From contig OY968764.1 of assembly GCA_963695335.1 (NCBI GenBank), forward strand, positions 1,302,685 through 1,366,684: 64,000 nt of DNA, given 5' to 3'. The notes beneath the pieces were generated by a model that worked only from the letters and a program-made list of their open reading frames with translations, was not told the origin of the DNA and made no database searches. Shown piece after piece: positions 17,412 through 54,843 of this stretch; the stretch's first letter is position 1; each line of letters starts with the position of its first letter. Made by a program: the position numbers and the translations under genes. This DNA is from an uncultured bacterium. GTDB taxonomy: Bacteria; Babelota; Babeliae; Babelales; Vermiphilaceae.

Positions 17412-20400
17412 TTATATACCTGAAGCTGAGTTATCTCTCGCATCACGACGTTCTCCTTCTTGAGCTTGCCGCTCAAGATCAGAAAGATCGTCTCCTAGGT
17501 ATCGTTTTCTAAATGACTTAACACCAGTTCCTGCAGGAATTAACTTACCTACAATCACATTTTCTTTTAAGCCATAGAGATGATCAATTTGTCCACTAAT
17601 TGCTGCTTCAGTAAGGATTCGTGTTGTTTCTTGGAATGATGCAGCAGAAATAAAGCTTTCTGTACCCAATGAAGCCTGAGTAAGACCCATAAGTATAGGT
17701 TTTGCCACAGCAGGACGTTTACCTTGCGCACGCAATGCACTATTTACCGTTTGAAAGTGAACAGAATCCACACGATCTCCAATCAAGAAATCACTATCAC
17801 CATTGTCAATCAACACGAACTTTACGTAACATCTGACGAACAATCAACTCAATATGGCGATCATTAATATCAACATCTTGTAAGCGATAAATTTCTTGAA
17901 TTTGATCCACAAGATAACGTTGAACTTTTTCAGCACCCATGATACGCAACATATCATGAAGCACTGGAGCACCTGCTGTTAACGGATCACCTGCACTCAC
18001 GTGCTCACCATCAACAACGTTCAACTGTTTACCACGTGGTACCAAATATTCATGGCGATCTGCACCAGTTACAACACTCACTTTTCTAAAGCCGCGATGT
18101 AATCCACCAATTACAACTTCTCCATCAATATCAGATAAAATAGCTGCATCTTTTGGACTTCGTGCTTCAAAAAGTTCTGCAATACGAGGCAAACCACCCG
18201 TGGTAATATCTTTTGATTTTGCAACTTCACGAGGCATTTTAACCAAAACATCACCAATATTAACGCGTTGTTTTTCAAGAACGTTCACATAAGAACCTTC
18301 AGGAAGGAAGTACTGAGTTAACTCTTCACCTCTATCATCAACAATACTAATTGCTGGCTGATATTGTTCTCCACGAGTTCCCATAACGATTGTTCTTGAT
18401 TTACCCGTTGCTTCATCAGAACGTTCATGAATCGTTACGTTTTTGATAAGATCAAGATACACAACTGTTCCTGCTTTTTCAGTCATAAGAACTTTATTGT
18501 TAGCATCCCAATCAGCAAGTTTAGTACCCGCTTTAACTTCTTGTTTATCTTTAACATGAACAATTGAACCATATTCTAAAGCATGTTGTTGTAATTCGCG
18601 ACCATCTGGAGCAACAATAAGAAGTCGAGCTTTTCTACTCATAACCACCATTTGCCCTTGTGGATCAATAACTACACGAACTCCATGCCATTCAATTGTT
18701 CCATCATATTTTGCATTAATAAATGGTTGCTCACTCAGACCACTCGCCAAACCACCAATATGGAATGTTCTCATGGTAAGCTGAGTACCAGGTTCACCAA
18801 TTGATTGCGCTGCAATAATACCAACAGTTGTACCTTCATCAACCAATCTTCCTTTAGATAAGATCATAACCATAACAAAGTGCACATACACCACGTTTAG
18901 CCTGACAAGAAAGAACTGATCGAACAAGAATCTTAGAAACTGCAGTACCATCAAGCTTCATCATCATTTCACGCGTAACTATATCACCACGGCTCAAAAG
19001 AAACTCCCCGCTTACTGGATCTTTAAGATCCGCTGCAAGAACACGACCAAATACACGTTTACCCATTGGATATACCGTATCGCCCGCTTCTTTTAAATCT
19101 GAAATTTCTAAATAGCCAAGTGTATTACAATCATGCATTGTCACAACAACATCTTGAGCAACATCTACCAATCGACGAGTCAAGTAACCAGAATTTGCTG
19201 TTTTCAACGCTGTATCGGACTGACCTTTACGAGCACCGTTCGTTGAAATGAAGTATTCAAAAACACTCAAACCTTGTTTAAAGTTCGATTTAACTGGTAT
19301 TTCAATAATTTCACCAGTTGGTTTTGACATCAATCCACGCATACCAACAAGCTGTTTAATCTGATCTTTTGTACCACGAGCCCCTGATTCTAACATCATA
19401 AAGACAGGGTTAAATGGTTTATTCAAATGATCTTCATTCGCAAAGACTTTTTTGTCTGCTACATCAAGCTCATTATACATAGTTTGCGCAACAGCAGCTG
19501 TTGCATCTCGCCAAATACTAACAACTTTGTTGTAACGTTCACCGTTGGTAATAACACCATCCATATATAATGATTCAATTTTCTCAACTTCTTTTTCAGC
19601 TTTTTGTACAAGAGCATCTTTTTCTGCCGGAACAATAAGATCATTAAGAGAGAGAGACATGCCTGAAATAGTTGCGTAATAAAAACCAAGATGTTTAATT
19701 CTATCTAAGCATGAAACAGTTGCATCTTTACCAAATTGATAGTAAATCAATTCTATCAATTTACCTAAATCGCTCCGTTTCAATATTTTATTAATTGGTT
19801 GGAAAGTGAAATCCTTCAGGGAAAGATTCATACACCAACACACGTCCAACTGTTGTTTCAACAATTTCATTATTAAATAAACGTACTTTTATTTGCGCAT
19901 GAAGATCTACGCTGCCAGCATTGGAAAGCGGTAACAACTTCAGCAACACTTGAGAAACGTAATTCCTTCCCCTTTTGACCCTTTACGAATCTTGGTCATA
20001 TAGTGAAGACCAAGAACCATATCTTGAGAAGGAACAGTTACAGGACGTCCATTTGAAGGAGAAAGAATATTATTTGTTGATAAAATTAAACGTTCACCTT
20101 CTAATTGAGATTTTTTGCTCAATGGTAAATGCACTGCCATCTGGTCACCATCAAAATCCGCATTAAATGCAGAACAAACGAGAGGGTGAATTTTGATTGC
20201 TTTACCATCAACAAGAATCGGATAGAATCCTTGAATACCAAGTCGATGCAACGTTGGTGCACGGTTTAAAAGTACTGGTCTATTTTTTACGATATCTTCC
20301 AATACATCCCATACTTCTGGCTCCAATTCTTCAACCATACGACGTGCAACACGCATATTAGGCGCTAATTCACGCTCAATAAGCCCTGCATAAATATATG

Positions 20401-24500: not shown

Positions 24501-25864
24501 CTCTTTAAGAGATGAAGTATCTCCAGGCCATATTTTTGCATGAAGATCTTTTAATGCAGCGTCCTGCGATTGACATTTATCTTGAGCAAGAGTTAAGGCA
24601 ATAGTCGGCTGTAACGCATAACCATTTGATCTAATTAACTCAAATTGTAGTGAATCGAATTTTTTAATAATTTTAAGATGGTTTTCAGAGAACAGTTCGC
24701 CTTGCTCAATAAGAATTTCTCCTGTTTCTGAATCAACAACATCTTTTGCAAAAACACGCCCTACCAGACTTTCTGATTTGAGCGTTATTAATTCAACATG
24801 AGCTTTTTTAAGTTTAGCTAATAACTCTTTTGTATACTCTACGACCAACAAAGCCTTCTTCTTGCTCAGCAGGAACCATGCCTTTTTCAATACGTTGACC
24901 TATAAGATGTTCATCAACATCACTAAAAAATTGATCTTTTTTAAAAGAAACAGTGTCAAATGTATAAAATAAGAGGAATAATTTCATCACGAGAAAAGCC
25001 AAGCGCTTGTAAGAACGTAGTAACGTATAATTTTTTCTTTTTATCTATACGTACATATAAAATATCATTGCTGTCAGATTCAAAATCAATCCATGAACCA
25101 CGCATTGGTATAATACGCGCAAGATAGTATGGTCGCCCACGAAAATCTTTTACTTTTTTGCTTTGGGAAAATACCACACCAGGAGATCTATGCAACTGAC
25201 TCACAACAACACGATCAACGCCATTAATTAAGAAAGAACCCAAGTTGCCGAGTTTAAATCTTCCTTGCTCTTCATAAAGATCTGCCATAACTGGCAAATC
25301 TGCAAAGAAAATATCTTGCTCTTTAATATCGCGAACTATTTTGTTGCCTTCAGCATTAGTTGTCCAACTAATCAGCTGCACTTTAATTTTGAGGGACATA
25401 GAAAAAGTTTGGCCACTTGTACGACATTCATCCAACAAAAGCGGAGTATGAACTGTTGTACGTACCAAACAGTTAGAACACGTCACATAACGTGCTGTTT
25501 TTTCTTTACAGAAAGTACATGCTTGATCTTTAGATAAACGTGAACAATCAGATTTTTTACATGATGTACAGCTCCACTGATAACGACTTTCGATACCAGT
25601 TAACTTCCCACATGTACAAGCCCAACGCCCTAACTCATAGCTAACATACTCGAGCGAAAGCTTATCCTCATACTCAATAGGAAAAATATCCCGCAACACT
25701 TTTTCAAGCCCAATAAGCTTTCTTTCTTGCGGTAAATAATCAAGCTGAACAAAATCATTAAATGATGTTGATTGTATTTCGATCAAATTTGGTACCGGAA
25801 CAACGTCCCTTATTTTACCATATTGTTTACGAAGGGTACTCTTGCTTATAAGTACATTAGACAT
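21537..25864 (-). CDS. rpoB: RNA polymerase beta subunit (two +1 frameshifts) with Cys-rich N-terminal insertion
   Basis: [40 protein letters not shown]; removing 2 nt gives 1442 codons. Confidence 0.97.
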
Positions 25865-42754: not shown

Positions 42755-42792
42755 CCGCTCGTCCTGAGCCTGTCGAAGGATATCTTCGAGCG
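42755..42792 (+). repeat. Family-B palindromic repeat (empty IS110 target with a perfect left-target match)
   Basis: ccgctcgtcCTgagcctgtcgaaggatatcttcgagcg. Confidence 0.8.
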
Positions 42793-47726: not shown

Positions 47727-47783
47727 CCCCAATTTCCATTTCATTCCAATCGGGGTCCTCATTGAAGGGAACTGAAAATGGGA
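47727..47783. repeat. Family-C palindromic repeat
   Basis: ccccaatttccatttcattccaatcggggtcctcattgaagggaactgaaaatggga aligns to 206-263. Confidence 0.7.
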
Positions 47784-47809
47784 TTAAACAAACGATTGAA
47801 AGAAAAATA

Positions 47810-50800
47810 ATGAAACTCACTCTCCGTTCACCATTTTTATGGATCATCGCAACAGTGCTCTCAGGATTAATGTATTTTTTTGCATTTCATCTTTTTCCTC
47901 AAACATTTCCCATCATCAATCTTTCTATCACCATGGATCTTGAACAAGCATTGGATAAAGCTGATGATATTGCTCAAGAATACAATTTCGGCCCCGCCTT
48001 CGCCGAGGCTTCAGCGGACAGGCCCTATCAATCGGCAGCAATGTTCCATACAGATAACACGGTAAAAACATTTGTTGAACTGGAAGGTGGTGGAAGAGAT
48101 GCATTTGTTGCAATGATGGATAAACAACTGTATATGCCATACACATGGAGAGTGCGTCATTTTAAAGAACATGAAAAAAATGAAACAACGTTTATATTTA
48201 CTCCTGATGGCACATTATACGGTTTTGTGGAAACATTATCAGAAAATATTTCTGGTGCACAGCTGACTGAAAATGAGGCACGTCAAATAGCAGAAAACGA
48301 TGCTGCAACATATTGGGATATTGATTTCTCTCCATACACATTAGTTGAAACATCACAAAAATTAGAAATTGGTGGACGCCTTGATCACACATTTATTTAC
48401 GAACGAAATGATGCAAAAATCCAAGAAGGTCTTTACCGTTTAAAAATAGTCGTCAGTGGTGATAAAACAACTACACTGAATCATTTTGTTAAAATCCCCG
48501 AAGCATTCACCCGCCGCTATGCAGAAATGCGATCAGCAAATAATACTATTTCATGGGCTGCAACAATTTTCATGATTTTATTATACTTTATTGGTGGTTG
48601 TTGTTTTGGCCTTTTTTATCTGAGTAAACATCGCTGGAATATCATCAAACAACCAATGAAATGGGCTGTCTTTCTTTCTACTCTTTCTGTTCTGACATCA
48701 ATCAACCAATTACCATTTTTATGGATGCATTATCACACCGCATTATCATCATATGGTTTTTTGATGCAAATATTGCTCAATCTTCTTATCAGCTTCCTTG
48801 GATATGTCGTTATTCTAACACTCATCATTATGGCAGCTGAAGGGCTTACACGCCGTGCCTTTGGCAACCATCCACAACTCTGGTTATTAACACAACCTGA
48901 TATAAAAACATCTTATGCAATTTTTGGCAGAACATACGCTGGATATCTTCTTGTTGGTTTTAATTGCGCATTTGTTATCGGATTTTATTTCTTTTCTACT
49001 CGTTATTGGGGTTGGTGGTCACCATCAGAAATGTTGTTTGATCCCAATATATTAGCAACCTATGCTCCATGGTTTTCACCCATTGCGAAATCGCTTAATG
49101 CTGGTTTTATGGAAGAGTGTCTTTTCCGTGCAATTCCACTCGCGGGAGCTGCACTATTAGGTAACCGTTTTGGAAAAAGAAATTGGTGGATAGGCGCTGC
49201 ATTTATTTTGCAAGCAATTATCTTTGGCGCAGCTCATGCAAACTATCCAATGCAACCATCATACGCACGTCTTATTGAATTACTTGTGCCATCATTTATT
49301 TGGGGTGCAATCTATTTACGATTTGGTTTAGTTACAAATATTATCGCTCATTTTGTGTATGACGTTGTGTGGTTTTCTATACCTATTTTTGTATCGCAAA
49401 CACAATACGCTTACGCATATAAAATAACAATTATTTTTGTTACTCTGTTGCCACTTCTTTACGTGCTATATGCACGTATCAGAAAAGGTACATGGACAGA
49501 AATTTCTACTGATGCACTCAATGCAGCATGGTCACCAACCACAACTATCAAAGAAAAAATAGAACCTATCATAAGAAAAACAGAATCATATAATCTTACA
49601 AACACACTAAAAAAAATAATCATTGGACTTGGTGCTGCAGGACTCATTGCATGGATATACAACACACCATTCACGCATGATGGTGTTACTATTACATTGA
49701 ATAGAGATGATGCAATTGCAACGGCGAATGCATATTTAGAAGAAAAAAACTTTACGCCTGACACGTCCGACTCCGCCAAGGCTTCCGACTTTGCCAAGGC
49801 TTCGTCGGACAGGTCGTCGGACAGGCATTGGAAAACATTACCACTCATATTTGCAGACTATAAACTCATACCGCAGATTGCTTTGCAACACAAATTTATC
49901 TGGCAAGAAGGCACAAAAGAATTGTATCACCAACTATTAGGTAACTATTTGCATCCAGCACATTGGACAATCCGTTATGCTCAATTTGATACTGATATTA
50001 TTCAACGAGCAGAAGAATACAAAGTATTGCTCTACAATAATAAAATATGGCAATATTATCATCAACTGCCTGAATCTACTGCAGGAGCAGAACTCTCACA
50101 AGAGACAGCACGCACAATTGCTTTTGCAGCCATCCAAGAAGAACTCAATATCAATCCAAAAGAGTTAACGGAAATTTCTGCAAGAGCATCACAACTGCCT
50201 CATCGCAAAGATTGGTTATTTGTTTTTTCAGATCCAAATATTTATCCATTACCGATTGGCCAAGCACGCATTTCTGTTACTATCAGTGGTGATCAAATAA
50301 CCAATGTTCTTCGTGCAATTCATGTACCAGAAGAATGGGAACGTGCTGAACAACATAAACAAAACATGCTCAGTATTGTTCTTATTGTACTAGCACTATT
50401 ATTTATGTTTCTTATTGTGTTTGCATTCTATAAAGCATCCAAACATAACAAAACGTTTATATTTTCAAAACGATTGTTCTTTATTTTATGCGGTGTTGTA
50501 TCTGTAATATGCGTTATTGATTTGATTAACTCTTGGCAAACTGTTGTAGGTGGATTTAACACAAGCTTACCACTCACCAATCAGCTCTTTCAGACAATCA
50601 CAGGCCTCATCATCAGCTCTCTTATGAAAATAGTTGGTTATGCAGCAGTAATAAGCTATGTCATGTCACACAAAAGATCTCATCAATTACCACATACATG
50701 GCTTACCGCAATACTTGGGATATCTTCTGGACTTTTTGTATCAGGAATATATGCAACAGTACAACTGCTTGTGCCATCTCACATGCCACTTTGGCCACAT

Positions 50801-51298
50801 TATGAATCACTGAGTTATACAATGCCATTACTTGCTAGCTTAACTCATGCTATTTCATACTATACACAACTAACTATTGCATGTTCATTACTCTTTATGC
50901 TCATTGATACAGCAACCCGTCCTTCGATAGCTTCCGACTTCGCCAAGGCTTCGTCGGACACGGCAGGACGAGCGGAAGAGAAAAATTGGTTACTTTTGAC
51001 AGGATTAATGACAGTGTATGGCATGCTCGCCATTCATTTGCCATCTCTAGATATGATTGGAATATGGATTATTGCTGGCGCACTGTTTGGTTGGACATTA
51101 CTTGCAATGTATCGTTATGTCATACGATATGATTATGCACTTATTTCTGTAGCAACCAGCGGCCCTACACTATTATATATTGCACAACAAGGAATCTTTA
51201 ATGCATATCCAGGTGCGTGTATCTATGCATGTATAAATAGTATTGCTGTTATATGTGTTGCTTCTGTGTGGTATTGGTACGTTAGTAAACAAAATTAA
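47810..51298 (+). CDS. Large CPBP (Abi/CAAX) family intramembrane metalloprotease with duplicated extracytoplasmic domain
   Basis: EECLFR, FGAAH, IIAHFVYD motifs; many TM helices; contains in-frame repeat insertions. Confidence 0.88.
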   Translation: MKLTLRSPFLWIIATVLSGLMYFFAFHLFPQTFPIINLSITMDLEQALDKADDIAQEYNFGPAFAEASADRPYQSAAMFHTDNTVKTFVELEGGGRDAFVAMMDKQLYMPYTWRVRHFKEHEKNETTFIFTPDGTLYGFVETLSENISGAQLTENEARQIAENDAATYWDIDFSPYTLVETSQKLEIGGRLDHTFIYERNDAKIQEGLYRLKIVVSGDKTTTLNHFVKIPEAFTRRYAEMRSANNTISWAATIFMILLYFIGGCCFGLFYLSKHRWNIIKQPMKWAVFLSTLSVLTSINQLPFLWMHYHTALSSYGFLMQILLNLLISFLGYVVILTLIIMAAEGLTRRAFGNHPQLWLLTQPDIKTSYAIFGRTYAGYLLVGFNCAFVIGFYFFSTRYWGWWSPSEMLFDPNILATYAPWFSPIAKSLNAGFMEECLFRAIPLAGAALLGNRFGKRNWWIGAAFILQAIIFGAAHANYPMQPSYARLIELLVPSFIWGAIYLRFGLVTNIIAHFVYDVVWFSIPIFVSQTQYAYAYKITIIFVTLLPLLYVLYARIRKGTWTEISTDALNAAWSPTTTIKEKIEPIIRKTESYNLTNTLKKIIIGLGAAGLIAWIYNTPFTHDGVTITLNRDDAIATANAYLEEKNFTPDTSDSAKASDFAKASSDRSSDRHWKTLPLIFADYKLIPQIALQHKFIWQEGTKELYHQLLGNYLHPAHWTIRYAQFDTDIIQRAEEYKVLLYNNKIWQYYHQLPESTAGAELSQETARTIAFAAIQEELNINPKELTEISARASQLPHRKDWLFVFSDPNIYPLPIGQARISVTISGDQITNVLRAIHVPEEWERAEQHKQNMLSIVLIVLALLFMFLIVFAFYKASKHNKTFIFSKRLFFILCGVVSVICVIDLINSWQTVVGGFNTSLPLTNQLFQTITGLIISSLMKIVGYAAVISYVMSHKRSHQLPHTWLTAILGISSGLFVSGIYATVQLLVPSHMPLWPHYESLSYTMPLLASLTHAISYYTQLTIACSLLFMLIDTATRPSIASDFAKASSDTAGRAEEKNWLLLTGLMTVYGMLAIHLPSLDMIGIWIIAGALFGWTLLAMYRYVIRYDYALISVATSGPTLLYIAQQGIFNAYPGACIYACINSIAVICVASVWYWYVSKQN
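47993..48022 (+). repeat. Family-A 30-bp in-frame palindromic element (PAFAEASADR)
   Basis: cccgccttcgccgaggcttcagcggacagg; GC-rich island in an AT-rich gene. Confidence 0.8.
49766..49825 (+). repeat. Two nested family-A 30-bp elements, in frame
   Basis: tccgactccgccaaggct[tccgactttgccaaggcttcgtcggacagg]tcgtcggacagg. Confidence 0.9.
50920..50975 (+). repeat. Family-A 30-bp element (50933-50962) nested in a family-B repeat, in frame
   Basis: tccttcgatagct[tccgacttcgccaaggcttcgtcggacacg]gcaggacgagcgg. Confidence 0.85.
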
Positions 51299-51522
51299 TT
51301 AACGTGAGTTCGATTTAAGCACAATACTATACTTCTTAATGAATTATTCCTCTGCGCTCGCCCTGAACTTGTTGAAGGGTATCTTTGAGCGCACTCTTAA
51401 TAACAATAAAAAAACAACAAAGTTTCTATTCTTTAGTAATGATTAAAAAGAAAAATATTTTTTAATAAAAAAAGAAACCGCGCTCAAAGATATCCTTCAA
51501 CAAGTTCAGCGATTATGATCAA

Positions 51523-51528
51523 AGTCAA
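51523..51528 (-). promoter_or_regulatory. -35 box (TTGACT) of the circle-junction promoter; pairs with -10 TATGAT at 52674-52679
   Basis: Junction reads TTGACT-17 nt-TATGAT. Confidence 0.8.
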
Positions 51529-52490
51529 GTAGAATAGGCATTTTTATTAGGTGCCCACTTTCTATTTTCAGTAAGAAGAACATTAGCAAGTATAATAAAC
51601 TTGCGCATTACAGCAATTAGGGCAATCTTAGATGGTTTTCCTTCTTCACGTAATCGCTCATAAAATTTCTTAAAATCTGGATTATGTTGAACAGCTGAAA
51701 GTGTAGGCATATACAGCATTTTTCGTGGTAAGGATCTACCTTCTCTAATGATAGATTTTTTCTTATAATTACCACTTTCATTGGTGTATGGAGCTACGCC
51801 TAATAAGGCTGCAACTTGCTTATTTCCAATACTTCCTAATTCAGAAAAAAAAGCAATTAACGTTGCTGATGTTCCTTTTCCAGCACCAGGAATTGATGTG
51901 ATAATATTTTGCTTATGTTTCCAGTCATCATCATTATCAATTAATTGTTCTATTTCTTTTTCCAATTCCTTAACTTGTTCATCCATAAAATCAATATGTT
52001 GTTGAATTTTGTCTTTACAAAATTCAACTTGTGGATGAGCCAATCGTGTTTTTTCTCGACTGATCATTCCCGTCAAATCACTTTTCCTTCTTATTAAAGC
52101 TTTCAATAATTCTTCATTCTCTTTTGGCACTTTAATGCGTGTTTCCTCTGATAATTCTTTTTGTTGTGCAAACAAAGCAATCATAGATGCATCAATCTTG
52201 TCTGTTTTTGCTTTTGCTCCATCTGATGCGATAAACGACTTAATTCGTTTCGGCTCAATTAGCCATACAAAATATCCAGCATTACTTAATGTACGAATCA
52301 ATAATTTTTCGTATCCACCAGATGATTCACATACAACGCGAACAACATTGTACTCAGAAAATACATTAAGTATTTTATTGAGACCAGCGGCGCTATTTGG
52401 CGTTTTAAAATATTGATTCAATGGACGTAAAAAAACATCCAAATTATCTTTTGAAATATCGACACCAACAAATATTTCTGTTAGCTTCAT
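51525..52490 (-). CDS. IS110-family recombinase/transposase (DEDD RuvC-like plus Tnp domain)
   Basis: VGVDISKD, CESSGGY, KTDKIDA, SIPGAG, GVAPYTNESG. Confidence 0.95.
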   Translation of the reverse strand: MKLTEIFVGVDISKDNLDVFLRPLNQYFKTPNSAAGLNKILNVFSEYNVVRVVCESSGGYEKLLIRTLSNAGYFVWLIEPKRIKSFIASDGAKAKTDKIDASMIALFAQQKELSEETRIKVPKENEELLKALIRRKSDLTGMISREKTRLAHPQVEFCKDKIQQHIDFMDEQVKELEKEIEQLIDNDDDWKHKQNIITSIPGAGKGTSATLIAFFSELGSIGNKQVAALLGVAPYTNESGNYKKKSIIREGRSLPRKMLYMPTLSAVQHNPDFKKFYERLREEGKPSKIALIAVMRKFIILANVLLTENRKWAPNKNAYST

Positions 52491-52668
52491 AGTAATTCTT
52501 CCTCATAATACGAGCCTTGCGCTCAAGCGATTATTCGAATCTTCTACAAATCTGGTTGATAGCTCTTTAGCTGAAAACGGTTCTTGTAACCTAGGACGAG
52601 CACAAGACGCTATCAACCTTTTTTTATAGCCTAGTTTCCTAAACCTAAAAAACTCAATAATCTACATG
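52491..52668 (-). ncRNA. Predicted bridge RNA (5' stem-loop, target-binding loop, donor-binding loop)
   Basis: Left target guide 52593-52601, right target guide 52571-52575, left donor guide 52526-52534 and right donor guide 52502-52507 match target and donor; ends approximate. Confidence 0.85.
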
Positions 52669-52736
52669 CTTTTATCATATGAGGACGAGCGCGTAAGATT
52701 AAATGATTTTTTAATTTTTCTTAGATCGAACTCACG

Positions 52737-53903
52737 TTAATTATTAAGCAATCTATTAAAAATATTTTCTAATTCTTTAGTCGATTGCTTAATTTCAAAC
52801 TCATCTTCAACTTTTTTTCTTCCCGCCAACTCTACAGATTTCCATATTTCTGGATGACTGATAATATAATCAATTGTATGTGTTAATTCCGTTACGCTTT
52901 CTTCTGCCACTAAAAATCCAGATATTCCATCATCAATCAACTCAGATGTCCCAGCATGCCACGTGCTCACAGCAATAAGTCCCATGGCCATTGCTTCTTT
53001 TAACGCATTGGCAATACCTTCTTCATTTCCATCACTCGATTTTTTTGACGGCAACATAAAAATATGAGATTTATCTAAAATAGAAGCAACTTCTTCATGG
53101 CTTTTCCACCCACAAAATGTAACATTATCCTGAAGATGTAATTGATATACTAATAACTCCAAATACGTTCGTTCTTCACCATCACCAACAATAAAGTAAT
53201 GCACTTTAGGATATTTTCTTACAATTTCAGCAAAAGCTTTTATTGCGTCATCTATACCTTTTTTCTGGACAAGTCTACAAGTAGAAACAAAATTTATGTA
53301 ATCATCGCTTGGTTTATGACGTAATCTAAATGGAAATTGTGAACTATCGATAGCAGAATGATGTACTTCTATTTTTGATTTTTTACAACCAAGCGCAATA
53401 AGTTTTTTTTTAAAATAATCACACACAGGTAAAAAAAGATCTGCTTGTTTTAATACTTTCTTATATCTTGCTGGATTCTGCTGAAGATGTGCTGTAATAT
53501 CAGATCCTCTAATGCAAACAGCGACTTTTCTTTGCTTAAGCCATTCTGATAGACGTGGCATTTCAAAAATTTTTTGACCTAAATACCCAAATTGACAAAA
53601 AACAATATCGCATTGAGGTAATTTTGCAGGAAGATTTTTATACATAATACATTTCAATAAACCGTATTTTTCAATATTAGGATGCATACCAACTAATGAA
53701 TCTTTATGAAATGAAAAAATGGAAACATCATGTCCCCGCTCTATAAGTTCTGTCATTATATTTAAAATAAAAATTTGTGAAGGAGAAGGAAAATGCCCTA
53801 ATATAAAAAGTATGCGCAATGGTTTTTCAGCACAACTTATCGAATGGAATAAACAGATACATAATACAACACTAACTTTATATAGCAACATTCTTTTTTT
53901 CAT
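52737..53903 (-). CDS. GT4 glycosyltransferase (WcaL/AmsK-like) with signal peptide
   Basis: RGSDIT, RLVQKKG, EEGIANALKEAMAMG. Confidence 0.9.
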   Translation of the reverse strand: MKKRMLLYKVSVVLCICLFHSISCAEKPLRILFILGHFPSPSQIFILNIMTELIERGHDVSIFSFHKDSLVGMHPNIEKYGLLKCIMYKNLPAKLPQCDIVFCQFGYLGQKIFEMPRLSEWLKQRKVAVCIRGSDITAHLQQNPARYKKVLKQADLFLPVCDYFKKKLIALGCKKSKIEVHHSAIDSSQFPFRLRHKPSDDYINFVSTCRLVQKKGIDDAIKAFAEIVRKYPKVHYFIVGDGEERTYLELLVYQLHLQDNVTFCGWKSHEEVASILDKSHIFMLPSKKSSDGNEEGIANALKEAMAMGLIAVSTWHAGTSELIDDGISGFLVAEESVTELTHTIDYIISHPEIWKSVELAGRKKVEDEFEIKQSTKELENIFNRLLNN

Positions 53904-53919
53904 AAACAAATAACCATAT

Positions 53920-54843
53920 TTAAAATTGATAATCAACAATTGAATCTAATAACGCAATCAATTCATAGGCACTTTTATAACTTTTTACAATCATTAATTC
54001 ATAGTTTAATAATTTTTTTTCTATTCTTGCATCATACAAAAAACTACCCATACTAAATCCCGCTTGTTTTGCAAAATAACGTAATTGCTGTATTAATGCA
54101 TTTGGCTTATGCTTACGTAATAAAAATTTTAAAGTGTTTCTCATATGTCTTAATGCGTTAACTTCATCTTGGTTAAAAACAATCTTTTCTTCTTGAATCA
54201 TATACAAAAGTTTTTTGCATGCTAACTTGCATAAATCCTTATCAAAAGTATCATCCATATCAATTGCACAGAATCTATCTGTAATAGGATCATAACAAAG
54301 ATTTCCACAATGCCGATCTGAATTTCCTATAAACAGATCTAAAGCTACAATTTCAGGCAGTTGCGGATGCCACGTCATGTGTTCAATAATTGCTTTTGTT
54401 AATCCCTTTTCTTTAAATGTCTGTGCTTGCGCCCAAAACTGTCTAAGTCTTAATGCATTATATCTACATTTAGGTTGCTTTCTTACGGTGTCTCCTTTTG
54501 CAATCGTATGTAATGTTGCTGGCCAAAACTGCTGTATTTTCCCAGAAAACTGTTGTTTTGCTCCAATAATTTCAATCTCATGAGCAATGCCGCGCAATGT
54601 CTTTGCAACATATGCCGCTAAAGCATCACGTACAACCGACAACTGTTTTTTATAATCTTTTTTTTGTTTTATTAAATAAATTCTTCCATCAATCAATATA
54701 TAACTAATAAAACAGTTCTTGGTTTCAATTGTATTAACAATAGAAATATCTTCTCTTGCTTGATCAATTGATCTTGAAAATTTAGAAAATATAGGAAAAA
54801 TTATTATAAACGACAAAGCAACCAGCACATGTATCACGCGCAT
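53920..54843 (-). CDS. Exported atypical kinase (same family as 40895-42713)
   Basis: YLIKQK, DLFIGNSDRHCGN, AIDMD. Confidence 0.7.
   Translation of the reverse strand: MRVIHVLVALSFIIIFPIFSKFSRSIDQAREDISIVNTIETKNCFISYILIDGRIYLIKQKKDYKKQLSVVRDALAAYVAKTLRGIAHEIEIIGAKQQFSGKIQQFWPATLHTIAKGDTVRKQPKCRYNALRLRQFWAQAQTFKEKGLTKAIIEHMTWHPQLPEIVALDLFIGNSDRHCGNLCYDPITDRFCAIDMDDTFDKDLCKLACKKLLYMIQEEKIVFNQDEVNALRHMRNTLKFLLRKHKPNALIQQLRYFAKQAGFSMGSFLYDARIEKKLLNYELMIVKSYKSAYELIALLDSIVDYQF

Follow-up and report, generated by a model that had tools for sequence, protein, structure and literature searches.

The stretch of DNA analysed here, referred to as the window, comprises 64,000 nucleotides of contig OY968764.1 (assembly GCA_963695335.1, positions 1,302,685 to 1,366,684 of the forward strand), which represents the genome of an uncultured Babeliales bacterium of the Vermiphilaceae (around 35% G+C) as one contig of 1,366,684 bp. 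The minus strand of the window carries an insertion sequence (IS) of the IS110 group, which encodes a recombinase downstream of a long non-coding end, and which very likely constitutes an intact bridge recombinase element of the IS621 type with a guide-directed insertion cycle. The element runs from window position 52683 to 51508 and has a length of 1,176 bp including a CT dinucleotide at both ends, or 1,174 bp plus one CT core (CT 52683-52682 to CT 51509-51508). It is present in three copies, which are identical over 1,176/1,176 bases with 0 substitutions; in the whole 1.37-Mb genome, neither a further IS110 homologue nor an orphan bridge RNA was found.

All three copies have CT at both junctions and possess neither terminal inverted repeats nor a target-site duplication. 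They have the left flank gcgctcgtc-CT in common, and the right flank reads CT-gaacttgttgaagg in two copies and CT-gatagttcgacagg in one. In the window, the left target half with the core (52682-52692) forms the head of a 39-nt repeat, the right half of which (gaacttgttgaaggatatctttgagcgc) is located at 51480-51507; joining both halves restores the repeat. The target of the window copy, given as joined flanks, is GCGCTCGTC-CT-GAACTTG, and the donor is ATAATCG-CT-CATATG, whose left part plus core makes up the right end of the element (51508-51516). The left end (LE), the putative bridge-RNA gene, comprises 191 non-coding nucleotides (52491-52681), whereas the right end (RE) extends 17 nt past the stop codon.

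The recombinase open reading frame (ORF; 51525-52490, minus strand) codes for 321 amino acids and matches the Pfam domains DEDD_Tnp_IS110 (PF01548, 6e-22, residues 8-151) and Transposase_20 (PF02371, 1e-16, residues 195-278). It also matches NCBIfam NF033542, 'IS110 family RNA-guided transposase', with 199.5 bits (cutoff 140), and the NCBI annotation pipeline already names the family by hidden Markov model. A phmmer search against the PDB gave ISCro4 (9t56, 1e-41) and IS621 (8wt6, 7.5e-40) over residues 7-303. The motifs GVD, CES, KTDKID and ESG align with the DEDD and S-G motifs of IS621, so that D11, E55, D97, D100 and S239-G240 correspond to the motifs holding D11, E60, D102, D105 and S241-G242; mutation of D11, E60, D102, D105 or S241 was reported to abolish recombination by IS621 (PMC11208158). 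The ORF is of full length, and all catalytic residues are present. A large protein collection contains 665 homologues of the recombinase, and the ten nearest full-length ones all have 321 amino acids. The initial annotation had described the protein as compact, which was not borne out: 321 amino acids is an ordinary size for this family, since the IS621 recombinase has 326 (PMC11208158).

The predicted left-end RNA and its guides

Bridge RNAs of the IS110 group are described as a 5' stem-loop and, after it, two stem-loops with internal loops, the first of which is variable and the second conserved (PMC11208160), and the LE of the window element has this layout. Its RNA folds with -54.9 kcal/mol (z = -4.46), a stability that was reached by 0 of 200 shuffled sequences. 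A 5' hairpin with a GAAA loop (52628-52645, loop 52638-52635) is followed by the target-binding loop (TBL) module at 52554-52618, whose outer stem is formed by GGTTGATAGC (52618-52609) and GCTATCAACC (52563-52554) with 10/10 positions paired. This stem is extended by CTT (52606-52604) and AAG (52567-52565), and the loop encloses an inner hairpin of GGTT (52591-52588) and AACC (52582-52579). The donor-binding loop (DBL) module at 52495-52540 is closed by a 4-bp outer stem, ATTC (52540-52537) and GAAT (52498-52495), and contains an inner hairpin of GAGC (52524-52521) and GCTC (52515-52512). All strings that the initial annotation had read on the minus strand, including both inner hairpins and the GAAA-loop hairpin, were recovered at their positions; its two-loop layout stands as well, to which the closing stem ATTC/GAAT of the second loop, not named there, has to be added.

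The structure was compared with the regions upstream of the ORF in 19 to 20 relatives with 39-86% protein identity. RNAalifold recovers the TBL outer stem and its 3-bp extension as well as the outer stem and the inner hairpin of the DBL. When the five helices of the two loop modules were placed on a MAFFT alignment of 19 relatives, 93.5% of positions were paired and 17/25 pairs showed compensatory changes, with slid controls at 31-47%; an alignment of 29 distinct relatives fitted to the structural model gave 95.8% and 24/25, with slid controls at 32-46%. All ten outer-stem pairs of the TBL are compensatory in the latter alignment, and compensatory changes were found at 4/4 outer and 3/4 inner pairs of the DBL. 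The 5' hairpin is moderately supported: 78.8% of its cells are paired in 20 relatives, compared with 26-55% in slid controls. A covariance model built from the five-helix structure, R1, scores 119 bits at the window LE and yields 72 matches in 91 sources. Sixty of these lie on the coding strand directly upstream of an ORF, and R1 detects the RNA at this position in relatives down to around 30% protein identity. The remaining 12 matches, on the opposite strand, were set aside as artefacts of the palindromic stem.

The position of the RNA also bears on the question of whether the element could belong to the IS1111 group, in which the guide RNA, called seekRNA, is encoded in the right end. IS1111 elements share the recombinase family and the principle of an RNA guide with the window element; however, their RNA is located at the right end and they have long subterminal inverted repeats (7-17 bp as group criterion), neither of which was seen here. 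Here, the structured RNA precedes the ORF, and the combination of a 191-nt LE with an RE of 17 nt past the stop is the pattern given for the IS110 group, the IS1111 group being described as the reverse (PMC11208160). It is hardly conceivable that this is an IS1111-type element.

Four guides can be assigned within the two loops of the IS110-type RNA. According to the published logic, the left target guide (LTG) and the left donor guide (LDG) read like the top strand, the right target guide (RTG) and the right donor guide (RDG) pair with it, and the core is part of all four (PMC11208160). The window element obeys this strand logic exactly, and the CT core is found within all four guides. The LTG, GCUCGUCCU (52593-52601), corresponds to the DNA GCTCGTCCT (52601-52593) and is identical to left flank plus core (52690-52682) at 9/9 positions, in 3/3 copies. 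The RTG, UUCAG (52575-52571), is followed by the TBL handshake CU (52570-52569), both together spanning 52569-52575. TTCAG is the reverse complement of the right-junction CTGAA (5/5 in the window copy); among the three genome copies, CTGAA is complete in two and CTGA in all three. At the four known sites of this guide set, CTgaa is the right flank in two cases, CTgat in one and CTgag in one. The fifth RTG base, the first T of TTCAG, fits only two of these four sites, and the securely used RTG therefore has 4 nt (TCAG), like that of IS621.

In the DBL, the LDG AUAAUCGCU (52526-52534) corresponds to the DNA ATAATCGCT (52534-52526), which equals the final 9 nt of the element (51516-51508), that is, right end plus core, at 9/9 positions. 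Its 7-nt part agrees 7/7 with the own right end in the relatives listed. The RDG, UAUGAG (52507-52502), is followed by the DBL handshake GA (52501-52500), the two covering 52500-52507. TATGAG is the reverse complement of CTCATA, which consists of the core and the first four LE nucleotides (6/6), and the RDG overlaps with GAGGA, the likely ribosome-binding site. LTG, LDG and RDG thus agree with the initial reading of the guides, of which only the fifth RTG base is less secure. Based on base composition, the two 9-mers are expected by chance 1e-4 and 8e-4 times in the 191-nt LE, and the 5-mer and the 6-mer 0.18 and 0.09 times; the short matches therefore acquire meaning only through their position in the loops and through covariation.

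Guide covariation across relatives

In each relative, the left junction was placed by its own RDG and the right junction by its own LDG, and LTG and RTG were then compared with the flanking DNA. For 26 distinct guide sets, the LTG has an identity of 0.715 to its own left flank and of 0.312 to non-cognate flanks; for the RTG and the right flank, the values are 0.690 and 0.283 (29 distinct guide sets). The observed cognate fit was reached by 0 of 10,000 label permutations in each case. When a register slack of +/-1 was allowed and eight Babeliales guide sets were added, the LTG matched 5.48 of 7 positions compared with 3.05 for non-cognate flanks (n = 33) and the RTG 3.69 of 5 compared with 2.03 (n = 36), and again none of 10,000 permutations attained the observed fit. 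Folding of the left end and comparison of guides with flanks in homologues had been put forward with the initial annotation as checks on the bridge RNA, and both the z-score of -4.46 and the permutation result argue for it.

These counts leave out the 12 minus-strand R1 matches and the left junction of L011, where the contig begins. Furthermore, they exclude left junctions that were not uniquely placed (L087, L006, L086, L008, L115, L020 and L023), right junctions that were not uniquely placed (L089, L019, L112 and L126) and L129, L131, L132, L133 and L134 on both sides. L087, which stands outside the counts, fits by eye (flank gctcgttCT, LTG TCGTTCT). L091 (around positions 130-200) is offset: its LTG, CCAAAAT, and its DBL handshake base correspond to a left target situated 2 nt further left than the observed junction (ccaaaat-ac-CT), as might result from a slip in register or a small indel.

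Individual relatives illustrate how guides and DNA change together. In L085 (GCTCGCC), a T-to-C change is found in the flank and in the LTG alike, and a C-to-T change in the LE is paired with a G-to-A change in the RDG (LE CTTATA, RDG TATAAG). The guides GGTCTCC of L093, TATGAGA of L098 and CTTCAAC of L007 fit their own flanks, as does the guide ACGCCGG of a Pseudomonas relative, the right flank of which (CTCCCACA) matches at 8/8 positions. Cores other than CT also occur, namely AT (L110, L119, L120, L029, L030 and L180), TT (L004-L006) and GT (L112 and L115); each is the same in guide and flanking DNA, and the second core base is always T. The base that follows the RTG complements donor position 7 in 28/30 sets, and the base that follows the RDG complements target position 7 in 22/26 sets, which fits the handshake guides reported for IS621 (PMC11208158).

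This behaviour is difficult to reconcile with the proposal that the LE structure is a mere regulator in the 5'-untranslated region, that the protein alone picks the target, and that the matches between loops and flanks are incidental. Stems covary only with each other, whereas the loops covary with flanks and element ends over 33-36 guide sets and the handshake positions with the opposite DNA partner; in addition, guide-dependent recombination was reported from experiments with IS621 (PMC11208160). An influence of RNA folding on translation would be conceivable, since the 3' strand of the DBL stem and the RDG overlap with the ribosome-binding site, 4 nt from the ATG. As a full account of the LE, however, a purely regulatory role is highly improbable. 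Protein homology, LE layout, the four guides, the handshakes and covariation are in agreement with the initial assignment to the IS621-type bridge-RNA architecture with a CT core.

Proposed insertion cycle and target repeats

A -35 box, TTGACT (51523-51528, minus strand), is located in the RE and overlaps with the stop codon TGA (51527-51525), and a -10 box, TATGAT (52674-52679, minus strand), is located in the LE and predicted to be used after circularisation only. At the sequence level, the joined ends give TTGACT-17-TATGAT, and this split arrangement is common to 16/25 relatives for which both ends were mapped. No sigma-70-like site was found at the integrated left junction. According to the published model, excision reconstitutes a promoter (PMC11208160).

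Extrapolated from the work on IS621, the cycle would proceed as follows. On excision, the element would form a circle that links its right end to its left end via the CT core, thereby assembling a sigma-70 promoter from TTGACT of the RE, a spacer of 17 nt and TATGAT of the LE. Transcription from this junction promoter would yield an LE RNA of about 175-180 nt and would probably continue into the recombinase gene. The RNA is predicted to fold into the 5' hairpin, the target-binding loop and the donor-binding loop; in the latter, AUAAUCGCU and UAUGAG would recognise the circle junction just as the target-binding loop recognises the target. A recombinase tetramer, its active site composed of the RuvC-like residues D11, E55, D97 and D100 and of S239 of the Tnp domain, would then cut after the CT core via a phosphoserine intermediate, swap strands and resolve the Holliday junction. 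The insertion site would be GCTCGTC-CT-GA, the head of a 39-nt palindrome that resembles repetitive extragenic palindromes (REP), and the target would not be duplicated. Transcription, RNA binding, chemistry and programmability are thus presumed by analogy to IS621, and activity and reprogrammability of the window element are suggested by its three identical copies and its homology. The mechanism class itself has been well described since 2024, and the element adds nothing to the known mechanism.

The joined flanks of the window copy restore the REP-like 39-nt imperfect palindrome, which is present without interruption eight times in the genome at up to 2 mismatches; these sites serve as paralogous empty sites. 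The empty target that had been deduced from the flanks, GCTCGTCCTGAA, is real: the genome contains 14 uninterrupted occurrences, all of them within the 39-nt repeat. The 11-bp head GCTCGTCCTGA has 72 uninterrupted genome copies, and GCTCGTCCT has 87. When the repeat is folded as DNA (-7.0 kcal/mol), the CT core sits atop the 5' arm, at the boundary between stem and loop. The flanking glycosyltransferase gene is present in 10/10 genomes of the same genus (best identity 81%); because the downstream neighbourhood differs there, with tandem paralogues, an orthologous empty site is not readable, and the paralogous sites of the same genome were used instead.

The REP-like family consists of imperfect palindromes of around 39 nt (GCGCTCGTCCTGA...GAGCGC) and has several sub-families with the head GCTCGTCCT. 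The repeat interrupted by the element lies at 52682-52692 and 51480-51507 and has an inverted partner at 51354-51392; more copies are found, for example, near 42770. The two inverted copies beside the IS enclose an AT-rich spacer of about 87 nt, and copy L002 is arranged alike. Matches to plant microRNA precursors in this region (MIR4245, 36.3 bits with a gathering score of 74; 51364-51506, minus strand), the only ones that a scan with Rfam 15 gave, do not represent real microRNAs and appear because the two inverted repeat copies form a long hairpin. In-frame copies of one sub-family are located at around 49787 and 50917-50990 on the plus strand, within an ORF for a 1,178-amino acid membrane protein (47762-51298), where they encode ...ASDFAKASSD...; one of them has GCTCGTCCT followed by GC. 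These in-frame repeats recall the Rickettsia palindromic elements, which are inserted in genes. In metagenomes, the related IS copies L084, L085, L087, L088, L090, L092, L094, L096, L099 and L100 interrupt variants of the same head, with the flanks GCTCG[TC][CT]CT or GTTCG[TC]CCT, then GA[AG]CTTGT[CT]GAAGG, so that the repeat family and the IS clade co-occur across organisms. The idea that the repeats are non-autonomous elements moved by the recombinase was rejected, as the donor junction ATAATCGCTCATA occurs 0 times in the genome; the absence of an orphan bridge RNA also counters it. Elsewhere in the window, an ORF of 307 amino acids (53920-54843, minus strand) has HipA-like and PI3/PI4 kinase Pfam matches with E-values of about 1e-3, which are below the cutoffs.

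Several points weigh against the interpretation as an intact bridge recombinase element. The alignment of 29 relatives was fitted to the structure of model R1 and thus leans towards it. No bridge-RNA family of Rfam 15 was matched in window 50500-53500 at E-values up to 1, and the RNA assignment therefore rests on R1 together with the published description. The permutation controls ignore the relatedness of the relatives, and their significance is inflated by the many close relatives whose targets are variants of a single repeat family; however, unrelated guide sets match too. Poor fits were obtained for L022, L107, L091 (2-nt register offset) and the left side of L004. The identity of the three copies could partly be an assembly or polishing effect. 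Neither a circle junction nor an alternative joint was seen in contigs assembled from four DNA runs of a single study. These contigs hold identical pieces of the element; one contig runs on into the flank of copy L003, and none spans an empty site.

Two essential genes of the window are relevant to the quality of the assembly. rpoB, which codes for 1,441 amino acids in relatives, is broken here into two ORFs of 305 and 1,117 amino acids (window 24890-24956, minus strand), and rpoC shifts frame twice within about 60 nt (window 19800-20020, minus strand). These breaks look like single-base indels and are most likely assembly errors. Arguments that rely on intact ORFs or on identical copies in this assembly should therefore be treated with caution.

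It could accordingly be asked whether a genuine bridge-RNA IS110 element has by now become silent or inactive, with identical copies that go back to one past burst or to homogenisation during assembly. The fact that the contigs of the four runs contain neither a circle junction nor an alternative joint, the lack of a promoter in the integrated state, the frameshifts in essential genes and the occupation of just 3 of around 75 potential 11-bp sites would be compatible with such a history. Low excision and weak expression in the integrated state are, however, described as normal for IS621 (PMC13626964), and the intact ORF, the complete set of catalytic residues, the perfect guide matches and the 0 substitutions over 3 x 1,176 bp speak for a functional element. 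A silent element is thus an unlikely explanation, and the IS621-type element of the window has probably been mobile recently.

Distribution and comparison with known systems

The rpoB product of the host is 88-91% identical to proteins named Candidatus Babeliales. The recombinase is patchily distributed: homologues were found in 8/120 other sampled genomes of the order, with a best identity of 45%, and in 0/9 sampled genomes of the same family. The nearest relatives, with 86% and 68% identity, are encoded on metagenome contigs. A tblastn search of plasmids gave 1,933 matching records, none with more than 38% identity. Among the matches listed by a literature search, no paper dealt with both IS110 and any of Dependentiae, Babeliales, Babela or TM6; ISfinder and the supplements of bridge-RNA studies were outside this search. 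There is about an even chance that the element and its metagenomic relatives (321 amino acids, 40-86% identical) form an uncharacterised IS110 sub-clade with naturally reprogrammed target and donor guides. On this reading, the group occurs mainly in Dependentiae and in genomes of the candidate-phyla type, and shows at most 38% identity to any plasmid-borne homologue. Within it, the target guide follows single-base variants of the repeat (GCTCGTC, GCTCGCC, GCTCGTT, GTTCGCC and GTTCGTC), and the right donor reads CATA in the window element and TGTA in relatives, with the RDG changed to match.

If this sub-clade is real and the element is active, the latter would provide a pair of recombinase and RNA that is orthogonal to IS621 and IS622, and the clade would provide a natural record of bridge-guide reprogramming. 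Bridge recombinases are being actively developed as tools for genome writing. In a screen of 72 orthologues in human cells, a product detectable by PCR was reported for 18, and clear activity for one (bioRxiv 10.1101/2025.05.14.653916), so that divergent orthologues with readable target, donor and RNA are useful candidates. For the window element, four guides, both handshakes, the natural target and donor and three natural insertion sites are defined, and the set of relatives shows which positions tolerate change. It further places a bridge system in the reduced genome of a protist-associated Babeliales bacterium, with a genome-wide REP-like repeat as landing pad.

Among the best 40 of the 1,933 plasmid matches, the only name in ISfinder style is the ISMno7 family of Methylobacterium nodulans plasmids, whose identity to the window recombinase is low (35.6% over 96% of the query). 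Among E. coli genomes, blastn with a Pseudomonas relative as query brought up L164 (NZ_CM137833.1, 344046-344999), an IS110 'RNA-guided transposase' that is a different element from IS621 and only distantly related to it (E 5e-25). R1 detects an RNA immediately upstream of its ORF as well (30.8 bits), and the element adjoins a replication endonuclease gene. ISPpu9 and ISPpu10 of Pseudomonas putida resemble the window element in that multiple copies are reported to have inserted into one type of conserved, palindromic intergenic repeat (PMC12288879; bioRxiv 10.64898/2026.03.19.712850), but belong to another host phylum and use another repeat family.

The closest characterised systems are ISCro4, also named IS622, and IS621. 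ISCro4 of Citrobacter rodentium (PDB 9t56) is the best PDB match (1e-41) and has the same architecture; it was reported to be 88% identical to IS621 and active in human cells (bioRxiv 10.1101/2025.05.14.653916). The window element is distant from both and known from sequence alone. The features shared with IS621 of E. coli, as far as described for the latter (PMC11208160, PMC11208158; PDB 8wt6), include the domain order, the catalytic DEDD and Ser-Gly residues, and a 191-nt LE whose RNA has a 5' hairpin followed by target- and donor-binding loops. They extend to the 9-nt LTG and LDG in top-strand sense, the complementary RTG and RDG, the CT core in all four guides and the handshake dinucleotides, as well as to the promoter split over the circle junction and the insertion in a REP-type palindrome. 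The window element differs from IS621 in its only distantly homologous recombinase (phmmer E 7.5e-40), its donor ATAATCG-CT-CATATG, its target GCTCGTC-CT-GA and its Babeliales host. Most of its relatives have the donor ACAATCG-CT-TGTATG, which is presumably closer to the IS621 donor than that of the window element.

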